A DNA stretch of 64,000 bases from NCBI GenBank assembly GCA_963716425.1, contig OY970310.1, positions 1,606,807-1,670,806 of the forward strand, read 5' to 3'. The notes under the pieces are model-generated. The model saw only the letters and a list, made by a program, of their open reading frames with translations. It ran no database searches and was not told where the DNA came from. This stretch comes from Candidatus Babeliales bacterium (GTDB lineage Bacteria; Babelota; Babeliae; Babelales; JBFXEV01). Numbering within the stretch: position 1 is the first letter of the stretch; every line of letters starts with the position of its first letter. Of the stretch, positions 1 through 63,902 are shown piece after piece. Made by a program: the position numbers and the translations under genes.

Positions 1-467
1 TTCTTATAAATCATACACATAATGGCAAGATCAAGATCTTGCGTTCTTGGATTAAGTAATGCTAATAGTTCAACAGAAGCATGTGCGCGTTCTGCGCAAT
101 CAAAAGGTATTTCGCATTGATTATTTAATTGAGTTCTCTTTACATTTGCCAGCGCCAATTGATGCATATAGTATCTTTCAGAAAGGAACATAAATGGTGC
201 CATTCTTGTCATAGCTTGCTGATAGGGCTTGGATTGCTCTTCCGGGGATTTACTTTTATCAAAGTGCTTTCTTATTTCCTTATGTGCTTCTTCATCATAT
301 GTAGCTATTTTTATCTGACCTTTTGTAAGCCATGTTGGTTCTACAAGAAGATTAAAGCATCCTGCATAATCGCCTTTTTTTGCAAGCGCATGAAGATCGG
401 TAGCTACGTCCATTGCATGAGTGGTTGCTGCAATCAACATTAAGGCTGCTAATAATTTTAATTTCAT
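1..467 (-). CDS. Exported hypothetical protein, N-terminal part only (ORF runs off the left edge); paralog of 483..1088
   Basis: The minus-strand ATG at 467..465 opens a stop-free frame down to position 1. It is absent from the ORF track because no stop lies in the window. Translation: MKLKLLAALMLIAATTHAMDVATDLHALAKKGDYAGCFNLLVEPTWL... The leader and the LH..A....Y..C...LV...WL block match 483..1088. The + ORF 129..443 is its antisense shadow. Confidence 0.6.
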   Translation of the reverse strand, partial: MKLKLLAALMLIAATTHAMDVATDLHALAKKGDYAGCFNLLVEPTWLTKGQIKIATYDEEAHKEIRKHFDKSKSPEEQSKPYQQAMTRMAPFMFLSERYYMHQLALANVKRTQLNNQCEIPFDCAERAHASVELLALLNPRTQDLDLAIMCMIYK

Positions 468-482
468 AATAAAAACTCGCGA

Positions 483-1088
483 TTATGTGTTTGAACCATC
501 AAAATAGAGTACTTTTTCTTCCGATGTACATTTATATGCAACGCCGTCAATGATAGTTTCAGTACCCGGTTTAAATATAGGAGCATGTGGATTTGCGGTA
601 GGTATTGCAGCAGTCAATGAGCCCTCTGGAGTTCTTAGTTTAGTACTAAGATGTGCTAAAATGGCACGTTCAACAATAATTGTGTTATTTTGGTTAAGTA
701 AACCAAGCAATTTGCCCGGAGCTTGAGCCTCACGTGCGATATCCTGTGGTGTTTGTTTTTGCGCATTAAGAGTTCTTTTCATTCTTTGCGCGGCTTGCAA
801 TTGATATTCTGCAAATTCGTTAAATCTCTTTGCAAATAACAATACTCTTTGTTGTGCAGCAACACGTTCAGTGGGATTTGTATCAATATTTGTCATTGCT
901 GCAAAGGCCTCTTGCGGAAAAAGTGCTTTTTCGAGTAGTTCACCCTCAAGCCATGCGGTGTTCACCAATTGTTGCAAGCACGCATCATAATTGTTTTGGC
1001 GCGCAGCTACATGTAAGGCAGATTCTTGGTCCATTGCTTGAGCAGTTGCACCAGCTATAGAAAAAGCAAAGAGTAAGCGTAATTTCAT
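483..1088 (-). CDS. Exported hypothetical protein (leader plus one ANK-like helix pair)
   Basis: Leader MKLRLLFAFSIAGATAQAM|DQ. LHVAARQNNYDACLQQLV resembles an ANK helix. The central and C-terminal parts (QTPQDIAREAQAPGKLLGLLNQ; KPGTETIIDGVAYK) parallel 1113..2447. Confidence 0.65.
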   Translation of the reverse strand: MKLRLLFAFSIAGATAQAMDQESALHVAARQNNYDACLQQLVNTAWLEGELLEKALFPQEAFAAMTNIDTNPTERVAAQQRVLLFAKRFNEFAEYQLQAAQRMKRTLNAQKQTPQDIAREAQAPGKLLGLLNQNNTIIVERAILAHLSTKLRTPEGSLTAAIPTANPHAPIFKPGTETIIDGVAYKCTSEEKVLYFDGSNT

Positions 1089-1112
1089 ATAAAACCTTTC
1101 TAATTGCTATAA

Positions 1113-61426: not shown

Positions 61427-61452
61427 CCATGATTCTATGAAATTATAAAACT

Positions 61453-62691
61453 ATGATTAAAAAAATATTCCTGTTTCTATCGTTCATAACGGCTTCAGTG
61501 CAGTTATTTTGCATGGAGCCGAATCATGCCTTGGTTCCTCGGGGTCAACGGCAACGGGCAGCTCATCAAGATAATGCAGAACAAATCAAAGAATTATGGC
61601 TTGCGTGTAAAAATGGCGATGAAGCTAAAGCTGCTCAATTACTGCAAGCAGGTGTGAGTGCCAATACTAGGTTGTTTTTTGGTGCTCCACTTGATGAAGA
61701 AGGGTGTGATGATACCACCTATTTGCATTATGCAGCAAGTGGCGGCCATCTGAACATTGTTGATCTCTTGTTTGCTCATCGCGCTCATACAAATCCGCGT
61801 GACCAAAATGGATGGATTCCGCTGATTAGTGCTCTTGCAATGGGCCATGAAGCAGTTGTAGATCGCTTGATTGCAAGAGGAGCACAGGTAAATAGTATTG
61901 ATGCTTTTTTAGGGCATAGGCCAATTGCTACACCTGTGCAGTGTTTGAATCCTCGCTTAGTGAGCATGTTACTGAAAGCGGGAGCTGTAGTAATACCGCC
62001 TATCATGACGTTCCATAACAATGTGCCTTTACAAGTTATATATCAAGGTAGCGCCTTACATATACTCTGTGAGCGTTTGCAACATAGACCTTTATATACA
62101 CCGGAATATGATACACAAGAAACTGAAGATCGCGCGCTTGAAATTATCGAGATAGTGCGGGCTCATGGGATTAATATGAGCCATCAAGATATCAACAACA
62201 ATACGGTTTTCCATGCAGCTGCTCGATTGAATGATAGAAGAATAATGGCTGCTTTGATGGTAAGCACTAACTATACTAAACCTATTAGACAAGCGGCTTT
62301 GGCAACGCTGAAAGCTTTATTGCTTGTAAATCAAAGAACTGTATCTAATGGTAGTGTATCTGCAGTATTACCTCAGGAGGTCGTCTTTCGCATATTTTCA
62401 CATATGCCTATTGAATGCAAACAAGCTGGCATTACATCGCTTATAGTTCCGCATTGTACAACTGCAGTGGCAATGAGAACAAGGTACCTTGATGCTTGTT
62501 TGGCTGATTTGAAAAAGCATAGTTGGCATACCGTTTTGGCTGATTTGAAAAAGCATAGTTGGCATACCGTTCCTGAAGTTCAAACTTTGCTTAAAGTTCT
62601 TGGTATCCTCAATAGTGCTCAAAAGCAAGCATGTGATTTAACTCAGGATGCTTACTTACAAAATGTGCTCAATCCTATTTGTTGGTATTAA
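61453..62691 (+). CDS. Leader-bearing ANK protein with F-box-like module (array member 5)
   Basis: Leader MIKKIFLFLSFITASVQLFCM|EP. TYLHYAASGGHLNIVDLLFAHRAHTNPRDQNGWIPLISALAMGHEAVVDRLIARGAQVN; LKALLLVNQRTVSNGSVSAVLPQEVVFRIFSHMPIECKQ; tail QDAYLQNVLNPICWY. Confidence 0.8.
   Translation: MIKKIFLFLSFITASVQLFCMEPNHALVPRGQRQRAAHQDNAEQIKELWLACKNGDEAKAAQLLQAGVSANTRLFFGAPLDEEGCDDTTYLHYAASGGHLNIVDLLFAHRAHTNPRDQNGWIPLISALAMGHEAVVDRLIARGAQVNSIDAFLGHRPIATPVQCLNPRLVSMLLKAGAVVIPPIMTFHNNVPLQVIYQGSALHILCERLQHRPLYTPEYDTQETEDRALEIIEIVRAHGINMSHQDINNNTVFHAAARLNDRRIMAALMVSTNYTKPIRQAALATLKALLLVNQRTVSNGSVSAVLPQEVVFRIFSHMPIECKQAGITSLIVPHCTTAVAMRTRYLDACLADLKKHSWHTVLADLKKHSWHTVPEVQTLLKVLGILNSAQKQACDLTQDAYLQNVLNPICWY
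62500..62571 (+). repeat. Perfect in-frame 36-bp tandem duplication inside array member 5
   Basis: TTGGCTGATTTGAAAAAGCATAGTTGGCATACCGTT occurs at 62500..62535 and again at 62536..62571, giving LADLKKHSWHTV twice. Confidence 0.95.
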
Positions 62692-62777
62692 TTTCTGCTT
62701 GCATTCTCAACGTATGTACGATTATTCCTTCGTGTGCTAGACTACCAAGTAGGGTACTAGCGCATGAAGGGATAGTC

Positions 62778-63902
62778 ATGATTAAAAGAGTAGTTATTGT
62801 AGCAATGATAGTGCCTATTATGGCATATGGCATGGATTTGCATCATAAAAAGCGTTCGGTGGAAGAGGCACTTGATAGCGGCACGGTATTAAAAAAACGT
62901 CTCATCAGCACCGAAGTGCTCCAACAATTTGAAGCTGCAGTAGCCCAACATAATATTGCAGGTGCCCGTCAAGTACTTATAGACAATCACTATCAACCAA
63001 AACACCTAAGTCTCAGTGAAGCAATTCGAGTGGAAGCTTTGCCAGATTTCATACATTGGCTGGGAGCTCAGCGCAATGCACATCCTGAGGATGACAGTTT
63101 CTCTACCGCATTGCATACGGCAACCGCCTATGGTAATACTTTTTTTATGCAACTGTTATTGTATACGGGTGCTGAGGTAAATGGACGCAATGCGGGAGGC
63201 TGGACGCCACTCCATTTTGCAGTATGGCATGGTCGAACTGCTGCCATGGTATTTCTTCTTGATAATGGTGCAGATACGAGTGCAAAAATCGTGAACGAAC
63301 ATACGCCACTCTATAACATTATTCGTTACTATAATTTAGATCATCATGGATTTCCCAATCCATTTGTGAAAACACTCATTATGCAATTTATTTCTCATGC
63401 CCAATTTAATCCACACAAAACGTTAGCCCAGAAAGCTGCAAGTCGAGACAGAAGAATGGCATTCTTGCTTTCATTACAACGGAACAATGCTCGGTTGCCA
63501 GTGGATATTCGCAGGAAGATAGCTGCTTATTTGCCTGAAGATATTAATTCACATCCATTGTTTTGCGCATTATTTTCTCACATAGAACATGATAGCCAAG
63601 TCCTTACATCTTGGGTGGAATATTGTCCATTTGCTTGTTTTAAAGCAGCGTGTGCTGCCAAAAATACTCCGCTAAAACGGCAACTTTGTATTAACACTTT
63701 GGCGCCCATGATTGTTGCATATCGCACGCGCAAGCTCCCAGAACTGTTACCTGCATTGGAACCTGCACAGCAACTGTATCCAGGAACTCAAGGCCCTCAA
63801 GCTGTTGCTTTGCAATGTATTGAAGAAGCAATAGAAGGGAATCTCATTCTTAAAACAGTGATTGATATCCTTAATGCGCCATCATCTATAGCCACTCAAT
63901 AA
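62778..63902 (+). CDS. Leader-bearing ANK protein with F-box-like module (array member 6, most diverged)
   Basis: The start is taken at the internal MIKRVVIVAMIVPIMAYGM|DL; the ORF track starts at TTG 62679. STALHTATAYGNTFFMQLLLYTGAEVNGRNAGGWTPLHFAVWHGRTAAMVFLLDNGADT; MAFLLSLQRNNARLPVDIRRKIAAYLPEDI. Confidence 0.75.
   Translation: MIKRVVIVAMIVPIMAYGMDLHHKKRSVEEALDSGTVLKKRLISTEVLQQFEAAVAQHNIAGARQVLIDNHYQPKHLSLSEAIRVEALPDFIHWLGAQRNAHPEDDSFSTALHTATAYGNTFFMQLLLYTGAEVNGRNAGGWTPLHFAVWHGRTAAMVFLLDNGADTSAKIVNEHTPLYNIIRYYNLDHHGFPNPFVKTLIMQFISHAQFNPHKTLAQKAASRDRRMAFLLSLQRNNARLPVDIRRKIAAYLPEDINSHPLFCALFSHIEHDSQVLTSWVEYCPFACFKAACAAKNTPLKRQLCINTLAPMIVAYRTRKLPELLPALEPAQQLYPGTQGPQAVALQCIEEAIEGNLILKTVIDILNAPSSIATQ

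Follow-up and report, generated by a model that had tools for sequence, protein, structure and literature searches.

Known members of the Dependentiae (TM6) are widespread obligate intracellular parasites of protists that encode hundreds of signal-peptide-bearing, eukaryote-like proteins, and we know of no type III, IV or VI secretion in them. In Babela massiliensis, 79 of 126 ankyrin proteins carry signal peptides and no secretion system other than type II has been detected (PMC4378268), while in Chromulinavorax destructans 78% of the ankyrin proteins have signal peptides (PMC6561590). The word 'methionine' is absent from the Chromulinavorax paper, and the part of the Babela paper available to us makes no mention of a Met at the leader junction. 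The closest analogue of the signature described below is found in another phylum: under the Q-rule of the Bacteroidetes, the residue right after an ordinary Sec signal peptidase I (SPase I) site, position +1, is preferentially Gln, which is cyclised to pyroglutamate by a known enzyme, glutaminyl cyclase (PMC5837995, PMC10653852). Here we analyse a 64-kb stretch of DNA (positions 1-64000, referred to as the window) in which the leaders of many accessory proteins end in a small residue followed immediately by methionine, the boundary Met. Taken as a whole, these data are best explained, and on balance we favour this explanation, by Sec leaders that would be cut just before a retained initiator Met, with selection acting on the resulting mature Met-Asp/Glu N-terminus.

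The window DnaN is 93% identical to that of a Candidatus Babeliales metagenome-assembled genome and 63% identical to that of a second uncultured genome, and on the strength of this identity we assign the window to a Dependentiae genome of the Candidatus Babeliales. The relatives sampled were 80 metagenomic dnaN loci of Babeliales, with DnaN 61-91% identical to that of the window; together with the window and the genome loci L001 and L002 they amount to 816 kb and 742 open reading frames (ORFs) of at least 100 aa. All 27 six-residue motifs quoted in a preliminary description of the window could be located in a six-frame translation at the expected genes, one of them (THAMDV) in a partial minus-strand ORF at the window start (leader 408-467). 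To these we add three weaker cases, at 31326-31961 (VFP/ML, where the slash marks the predicted junction), 47480-48055 (TQG/MF) and 11079-11807 (EPA/MV). Cleavable-looking leaders are present on about 41 window proteins, and 27-30 of these, about two thirds, carry the boundary Met. Counted from the functional leader start, the leaders are 18-29 aa long (median 19) and the Met falls at residues 19-30, a range somewhat wider than the 19-27 first given; several of the longest ORFs carry spurious upstream extensions ahead of that start. The preliminary statement that nearly every accessory protein has the signature was too strong, since about 11 leader-bearing window proteins lack the Met (two NADAR proteins, one ankyrin protein, an FAD oxidoreductase, an S9/alpha-beta hydrolase and several unknowns). 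Its Met-less controls were well chosen: 29335-30312 (AHA/AP, NADAR) and 30321-31121 (AFA/ET, ankyrin) have no Met at the junction, and neither do the SPOR, PpiD-like and PAP2 anchors.

Chance is an unlikely source of this pattern, as had been argued before. With a background Met frequency of 2.2%, Met in at least 27 of 41 leaders would arise by chance with a probability of 5e-35 at one fixed position, or of 1e-16 with five positions allowed. To avoid defining the junction by Met itself, we also used a Met-free anchor, namely the residue just ahead of the first charged one downstream of the hydrophobic core. Met occupied this anchor in 15 of 35 window proteins (43%, p = 2e-16) and in 21 of 203 proteins from the related Babeliales loci (10%, p = 5e-9), and in 0 of 21 E. 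coli K-12 proteins put through the same pipeline. A dipeptide of a small residue and Met was seen in the c-region zone of 20 of the 35 window proteins, compared with 0-6 in equally long zones farther downstream. Moreover, the carriers are not one family recounted but roughly 18-20 unrelated families: all-against-all BLASTP of the mature parts gave only four full-length paralogue clusters (genes beginning at 2567, 4207 and 5243; at 7396, 8513 and 9708; at 58050, 59064, 60260 and 61453; and at 1113 and 483), and the remaining links were generic ankyrin-repeat similarity or nothing.

The leaders are genuine, translated Sec-type signal peptides. Across 27 leaders, some 545 codons, there is no stop in frame, whereas the other two frames contain 80 and 17, and mean hydropathy is 1.31 in frame as against 0.29 and -0.18 out of frame. 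An in-frame stop lies at most 20 codons upstream of the leader ATG in 21 of the 27, and a Shine-Dalgarno (SD)-like motif is found upstream of the leader ATG in 13 but upstream of the boundary ATG in only one (Fisher p = 3e-4). Diverged orthologues retain both the open frame and the signal-peptide character. Some public gene calls do begin at the boundary Met, namely those at L085 10001 (P0004), L001 12622-13845 (P0016) and L003 12893-13720 (equivalent to window 53128-54162); each drops an upstream signal-peptide-like leader with its own SD-like motif, and we read these calls as annotation errors rather than as evidence of initiation. Because such calls lose the signal peptide, the secretomes of these genomes are probably under-annotated and look smaller than they really are.

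The signature is lineage-wide in Babeliales, which the preliminary description had not anticipated. It is present in 16 of 34 DnaN clusters (defined at 80% identity), among whose carriers DnaN identity is 60-99%, and in two further genomes reached via homologues (L085 and L086). In the window and its close relative L001 about two thirds of the leaders have it; elsewhere the share is roughly 15-30%. The motif fades outside the lineage and is lineage-specific. When 58 distant homologues of the window's metallo-beta-lactamase (MBL) fold protein with an N-terminal hydrophobic segment were inspected, Met was at the anchor in three; by eye, a junction of small residue and Met was seen in three (P0051, P0132 and P0177), and the rest had ordinary sites, lipoboxes or anchors. 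Signal-peptide ankyrin proteins from outside the Dependentiae likewise have ordinary sites, for example AVDA/QD.

The boundary Met is also associated with particular kinds of protein. Pfam searches with the 30 Met-class proteins of the window returned 18 ankyrin proteins, one Skp1_POZ + WD40 fusion and one MBL-fold hydrolase, with no match for the rest. Ankyrin proteins thus make up 18 of 30 Met-class proteins but 1 of 11 non-Met leader proteins in the window (p = 0.005), and 7 of 33 compared with 6 of 150 outside it (p = 0.003). Other members of the Met class, with domains of cytosolic type, are WD40 and Skp1, an AAA ATPase and a PLD-like protein (L085) and a thymidylate-synthase-like protein, while HtrA (four proteins), subtilases (five), phosphatidylserine decarboxylase (PSD), FKBP, Lnt and BamJ-like proteins were seen only in the non-Met class. 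Envelope housekeeping proteins account for 0 of 33 Met-class and 17 of 150 non-Met proteins (p = 0.045). The split is a tendency, not a law, and its exceptions in the window include three neighbours, 27384-28571, 29335-30312 and 30321-31121 (all on the minus strand), two NADAR proteins and one ankyrin protein with classical AxA-type leaders and no Met. Two small Met-less paralogues on the plus strand, 25500-26141 and 28749-29321, have in common a C-terminal KNAGxxxKDV...AEKVS region; the former has a lipobox-like LITC, the only such sequence seen, and the latter an AxA-type site. The leaders of the Met class are collected in Table 1.

Table 1. Leaders with a boundary Met in the window. Coordinates cover the leader; a slash in the junction column marks the predicted cleavage site, and leading dots mean that only the end of the leader is given.
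Feature	Coordinates	Strand	Junction	Remarks
Leader + Met, partial gene at window start	408..467	-	MKLKLLAALMLIAATTHA/MD	
Leader of gene 483-1088	1029..1088	-	MKLRLLFAFSIAGATAQA/MD	No Pfam match; C-terminal homology to 1113-2447
Leader of gene 1113-2447	2385..2447	-	MIMILFVVLTLLPCTHINA/MH	Weak ankyrin match
Leader of gene 2567-4165	4049..4117	-	MKLTYKLCLIMLFLNTHLFHA/MD	Ankyrin; functional start is Met17 of longest ORF
Leader of gene 4207-5262	5191..5262	-	...NMHLFHA/ME	Ankyrin
Leader of gene 5243-5959	5897..5959	-	MHKIYFILMSCLLQSSLYA/MK	Weak ankyrin match
Leader of gene 7396-8403	8341..8403	-	...SYHTALC/MQ	Ankyrin; C-terminal hydrophobic tail
Leader of gene 8513-9685	9623..9685	-	...CIPCSHA/ML	Ankyrin
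Leader of gene 9708-11039	10869..10934	-	MNGKLVALLCIYLSGTLSFG/MQ	Ankyrin; start is Met36 of longest ORF
Leader of gene 11079-11807	11079..11147	+	...ASHALEPA/MV	Weaker, ambiguous; alternative site SHA/LE
Leader of gene 21612-22433	21612..21671	+	MHSLILFILLFCSFYQYA/MD	Ankyrin
Leader of gene 22989-23363	23007..23075	+	MKKNILALLAIVTFNPSSACA/MD	No Pfam match
Leader of gene 24581-25303	24581..24646	+	MQKILILILVTVLANPSAFG/MD	No Pfam match
Leader of gene 31326-31961	31893..31961	-	...CTVPVFP/ML	Ankyrin; weaker, Pro at -1
Leader of gene 33552-34496	34434..34496	-	MIKNIVFGIILFSSTQLYT/ME	Ankyrin
Leader of gene 35494-35883	35809..35883	-	...SSTVPLKA/MY	No Pfam match
Leader of gene 37297-37890	37798..37860	-	MTQKILLIALLLFGCSIHA/MT	No Pfam match
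Leader of gene 41636-42721	42566..42625	-	MKQLIVISLLWSVHTLSS/MD	No Pfam match; L001 orthologue retains M-DALWIDEED
Leader of gene 47480-48055	47978..48055	-	...VCVNTQG/MF	Weaker
Leader of gene 49196-50233	49196..49264	+	...LLPQMVVA/MK	Ankyrin
Leader of gene 50236-51291	50236..50295	+	MFILVCILICMSMNSAQA/MD	MBL fold
Leader of gene 51414-52955	51432..51494	+	MFKKLLVMLMLFSVSAAMC/ME	Skp1_POZ + WD40
Leader of gene 53128-54162	53950..54018	-	MTIKFALFFCMILCSTQSLLC/MK	Ankyrin; one public gene call begins at boundary Met
Leader of gene 54008-54442	54365..54442	-	...SSGARIYA/MD	No Pfam match
Leader of gene 57295-58053	57295..57378	+	...NAHGTLNA/ME	Ankyrin
Leader of gene 58050-59060	58050..58112	+	MKQLAFALLLCISSCKLMC/ME	Ankyrin
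Leader of gene 59064-60281	59064..59129	+	MTKKLCLLIMLTFYTASLVS/ME	Ankyrin
Leader of gene 60260-61426	60260..60352	+	...FFLLILMNITNMISA/MD	Ankyrin; least certain: GTG start, short hydrophobic core, upstream-gene overlap
Leader of gene 61453-62691	61453..61518	+	MIKKIFLFLSFITASVQLFC/ME	Ankyrin
Leader of gene 62679-63902	62778..62837	+	MIKRVVIVAMIVPIMAYG/MD	Ankyrin

Several of these proteins have further features of their own. The product of 51414-52955 (plus strand) is a leader-bearing fusion of Skp1_POZ with a WD40 propeller, resembling a component of a eukaryotic SCF ligase; its closest homologues are stand-alone Skp1 proteins of 164-194 aa. The four tandem paralogues at 58050-62691 (plus strand) and proteins P0014-P0018 are ankyrin proteins with a common LPxEVxxRIFSHM stretch and a conserved C-terminal (L)(N/D)PxxW ending; an F-box in this family was considered and set aside, the match being a sub-threshold hint (E = 0.11). 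Five minus-strand genes (7396-8403, 8513-9685, 9708-11039, 41636-42721 and 54008-54442) encode a C-terminal hydrophobic stretch with a basic tail, and these tail-anchor-like ends suggest that the proteins might insert into a membrane at their destination. We looked for a common C-terminal signal and found none. In locus L031 (4635-5648, minus strand) a thymidylate-synthase-like protein (Pfam E = 1.6e-20), an odd enzyme for export, stands behind a Met-class leader.

The window, with a G+C content of about 40%, has tandem arrays of leader-bearing genes interleaved with dnaN-recF, recA, infC, rplT, RNase Y, an archaeal-type proS and a PpiD-like gene. A CarD-like regulator (11831-12433, plus strand) and a Bax-inhibitor-1 family membrane protein (34654-35343, minus strand) are also encoded. 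A tRNA scan of positions 1-64000 found no tRNA gene, and an Rfam scan of the same positions gave no family at the gathering threshold.

We examined the fit of the leaders to a signal peptide with a rule-based check (the -3/-1 rule). A short basic n-region, with K/R near the start in most leaders, is followed by a hydrophobic core and a polar c-region. A small residue stands exactly at -1 in 27 of 30 cases (A16 C5 G3 S2 T1, n = 27); position -2 is typically H, Y or F, and position -3 (L9 A7 I4 S2 F2 V1 T1 Q1) holds an allowed residue in 24 of 27, the exceptions being F, F and Q. The leaders therefore have the small, uncharged -1/-3 residues of a type I signal and no Pro at +1, where the residue is Met. 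Cys is unusually common at -1 (5/27) and within the leaders, and the commonest -3 residue is Leu, not Ala. We infer that SPase I most likely cuts between the small -1 residue and Met; a cut after Met instead would place the bulky -2 residues at -3. This is the cleavage proposed in the preliminary description, and it fits the -1/-3 rules: since the leaders end in a small residue just before Met, the exported proteins would begin with Met-Asp/Glu.

Other classes of leader did not fit. In the leaders with Cys at -1 (ALC, AMC, LLC, LMC and LFC) that Cys is preceded by L, M or F, which does not make a lipobox for signal peptidase II; the RR motif of Tat signals is found in 0 of 30 leaders; and the type IV prepilin pattern does not apply, given that the Met comes after the hydrophobic core and there is no GFTLxE motif. 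The NCBIfam curated models of N-terminal sorting signals gave no match to 10 Met-class proteins at E <= 0.1. Separately, pseudopilin-like genes with a prepilin-type G-F/V-T-L-x-E motif were seen near dnaN in four loci (L016 12539-13039, L024 18312-18806, L028 20520-21089 and L050 11049-11570, all on the minus strand), as would be expected if the lineage had a type II secretion system or type IV pili.

The leaders of paralogue families could not be aligned by MAFFT, and conservation was assessed in a junction-anchored comparison. The Met is identical in 16 of 17 orthologue junctions from eight families, compared with 2-7 of 17 for positions -8 to +8; with one comparison counted per family, the probability of such Met conservation is about 7e-5. 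In the MBL family the boundary Met is kept in all seven leader-bearing homologues (42-58% identity), followed by D/E in six and Q in one, and their leaders no longer resemble each other. Orthologues of 54008-54442 in L001 and L005 retain the Met despite diverged leaders, and in the 61453-62691 family it is present in three of four leader-bearing orthologues, the fourth (P0015) having Leu with the codon TTG. As the Met is retained while its flanks vary, these comparisons indicate that it is under purifying selection, and a freely decaying relic is unlikely. Where the Met came from is suggested by the Skp1-WD40 protein: counted from the boundary Met, its residue 3 lies opposite residue 3 of full-length human SKP1. 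Given that the boundary Met thus coincides with Met1 of the human protein, it is probably the retained initiator of a once leaderless gene, a register seen in this one family only. In a second register comparison the thymidylate-synthase-like protein of L031 proved uninformative, having about 17 extra residues ahead of its conserved core. The Skp1 homologue P0030 was set aside, being in a virus-like contig and so uninformative for Dependentiae.

A former initiator need not have a function, and the Met might be no more than a leftover start codon, marooned when young leaders arose by upstream extension. The Skp1 register is what one would then see, as are folded domains that begin straight after the Met, minimal leaders of 18-20 residues that directly abut it, and the replacement of Met by Leu already found in P0015. 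A functionless relic is, on the other hand, hard to reconcile with the contrast between the Met and its flanks in orthologues, with its presence throughout paralogue families whose members share only 25-36% identity and in every leader-bearing MBL homologue despite leader divergence, or with the exact placement of a small residue at -1 and the strong bias at +2. We therefore consider a neutral relic unlikely, though not negligible.

The bias at +2 concerns the predicted mature N-terminus. Asp or Glu is found there in 18 of 30 proteins, compared with a background of 11% (p = 1.5e-10), and a residue small enough for methionine aminopeptidase (MetAP) in 2 of 30, compared with 37% (p = 1.4e-4). 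N-termini with Met followed by a bulky acidic residue keep their Met and belong to the NatB class in eukaryotes. The preliminary description had likened the mature start to that of a freshly made eukaryotic cytosolic protein; the SKP1 register, the frequency of D/E at +2 and the scarcity of MetAP-removable starts lend this likeness some support. Combining these observations, we propose that complete, leaderless ORFs, often of eukaryotic origin, would each have gained a minimal leader of about 19 residues immediately ahead of the ATG. SPase I would cut before the Met, leaving an exported protein that begins with Met and a bulky, usually acidic residue, and the Met would be held by selection across Babeliales while the leader and flanking residues change freely. 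The selected property would then be the identity of the mature N-terminus (Met-Asp/Glu) on proteins that leave the envelope and act on the host, where it might be a tag for sorting after cleavage or, in host cytosol, an N-terminus that looks native and cannot be trimmed. More tentatively, we suggest a '+1 Met rule' under which Met-Asp/Glu is exposed specifically on host-bound proteins, either as a sorting signal for type II secretion or vesicles or as a mimic of the nascent eukaryotic N-terminus (Met retained, NatB-type, untrimmed); we hold this possibility to be real but short of probable.

Several observations weigh against parts of this proposal. As regards class, ordinary Met-less sites are present on three window proteins of these kinds, an ankyrin and two NADAR proteins, and elsewhere on six ankyrin and three LRR proteins. 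As regards conservation, the orthologue comparisons are few and phylogenetically non-independent, and the anchoring brings some ascertainment bias. Only with human SKP1 is the register of the Skp1 protein exact: P0029, its closest homologue, begins three residues earlier, and in P0034, a further Skp1 homologue, the Met is kept but a 33-residue linker separates it from the leader. Leaderless MBL homologues begin about 45 residues downstream of the boundary Met, and an origin from a former initiator may therefore not hold for every family. A regular-expression search for SPase I motifs across all 742 ORFs (816 kb) found none, and neither lepB nor a type II secretion core gene was found in the sampled DNA. 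Finally, Ala, Ser, Gly, Thr and Val are also stabilising in the Arg/N-degron pathway of the host, so stability in the host does not by itself account for the use of Met, and NatB works mainly co-translationally.

A role for the mature N-terminus would be superfluous if a Babeliales signal peptidase, or a dedicated paralogue, simply favoured Met at P1'. Such a preference would account for a motif that is lineage-specific and for a Met exactly at the predicted scissile bond. At the same time, HtrA, subtilases, FKBP and NADAR proteins in the same genomes have ordinary AxA sites at which the +1 residue is A, E, V or K, and the SPase I enzymes that have been studied tolerate almost any P1' residue but Pro; we regard a peptidase preference as improbable.

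The boundary ATG could also still be in use as a second start, giving a leaderless cytoplasmic isoform beside the exported form, a possibility raised in the preliminary description. The ATG is conserved, gene callers at times pick it (P0004, P0016 and the L003 call for 53128-54162), and about half of the genome's genes have no SD-like motif, so SD-independent initiation does occur. However, SD-like motifs are nearly confined to the leader ATG (13/27 as against 1/27), and where Leu or Val replaces Met at the junction the codons TTG (4/20) and GTG (3/14) are used at background frequency, with no excess of alternative starts. Moreover, dozens of ankyrin, WD40 and Skp1-like proteins have no obvious job inside the bacterium. 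The isoform is thus unsupported, and dual initiation seems to us a poor explanation of the Met, with a low probability.

The leaders might instead be uncleaved signal anchors, or be cut elsewhere, leaving the Met internal to the mature protein. The three cases with Phe or Gln at -3 and the C-terminal hydrophobic tails on several of the proteins would suit this reading, but the hydrophobic cores are short, with the whole leader only 18-29 residues long, and polar c-regions with small -1/-3 residues, which anchors do not need, are present in 24 of 27. True anchors in the window (PpiD-like, SPOR, PAP2 and RNase Y) look different and lack the motif, and we regard this reading as very improbable. 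Over-extended ORFs, in which the Met would be the true start and the leader an untranslated AT-rich sequence that reads as hydrophobic by chance, agree with those public annotations that begin at the Met but are effectively refuted by the stop-free frame, the frame-specific hydropathy, the tight distribution of leader lengths, the basic n-regions and small -1/-3 residues, the position of the SD-like motifs, the retention of frame and signal-peptide character in diverged orthologues and the empty result in E. coli.

Cleavage before a retained and selected Met, the explanation that we favour, is compared below with known systems. A search of the literature found no account of a junction Met motif, although its coverage was incomplete and absence is not proof; the conserved +1 Met appears to be undescribed, and it makes these leaders a form of the ordinary Sec/SPase I signal peptide that is specific to the lineage. 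The proteins that carry it belong to the same lineage and the same protein classes (ankyrin, WD40 and Skp1_POZ behind leaders) as the ankyrin effectors of Babela and Chromulinavorax. With ordinary Gram-negative Sec/SPase I peptides the leaders have in common a basic n-region, a short core, a polar c-region, small residues at -1/-3 and a length of 18-29 residues; they differ in the frequent Cys at -1, in Leu as the commonest -3 residue and in the +1 Met, which is present in about two thirds of leaders here, compared with none of 21 in E. coli at the Met-free anchor, a proxy for +1. Met is generally rare at +1.

Two further systems invite comparison. In the PEXEL of Plasmodium and the RxLR of oomycetes, a short motif by the signal peptide marks a host-destined subset of secreted proteins, and PEXEL processing creates a defined new N-terminus. 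Those motifs belong to other organisms and other machinery; there is no RxLxE/Q/D or RxLR motif here, the motif being the cleavage junction itself, and a sorting role, unlike host targeting by PEXEL and RxLR, is hypothesised only. We know of no +1 Met rule in phytoplasmas or Liberibacter. Effectors of these bacteria, which differ in envelope and lifestyle, are exported by plain Sec peptides and act in the host cytoplasm without type III or IV secretion (general knowledge; see PMC8026896 and PMC12845134). A junction residue that separates eukaryote-like exports from envelope housekeeping would give a testable handle on how proteins are selected for delivery to the host and, if the rule is true, the +1 Met would offer a simple way to recognise, from sequence, the effector repertoire of an entire phylum that is largely uncultured. 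As regards evolution, the data suggest that a parasite may turn acquired cytosolic genes into exported ones by joining a minimal leader precisely to their original start codon.

The likeness to the Bacteroidetes Q-rule lies in a phylum-restricted, characteristic exported N-terminus recognised from sequence statistics. It is an analogy only, as the residue here is Met rather than Gln and the organisms are Babeliales. We know of no enzyme that modifies a +1 Met, unlike the case of Gln, and the Met, again unlike Gln, is probably derived from an ancestral start codon. Moreover, the Q-rule covers most SPase I substrates, whereas the Met rule covers a class, mostly of eukaryote-like accessory proteins, and exempts envelope housekeeping. 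It would be a second phylum-specific +1 rule for Sec substrates, after that of the Bacteroidetes.

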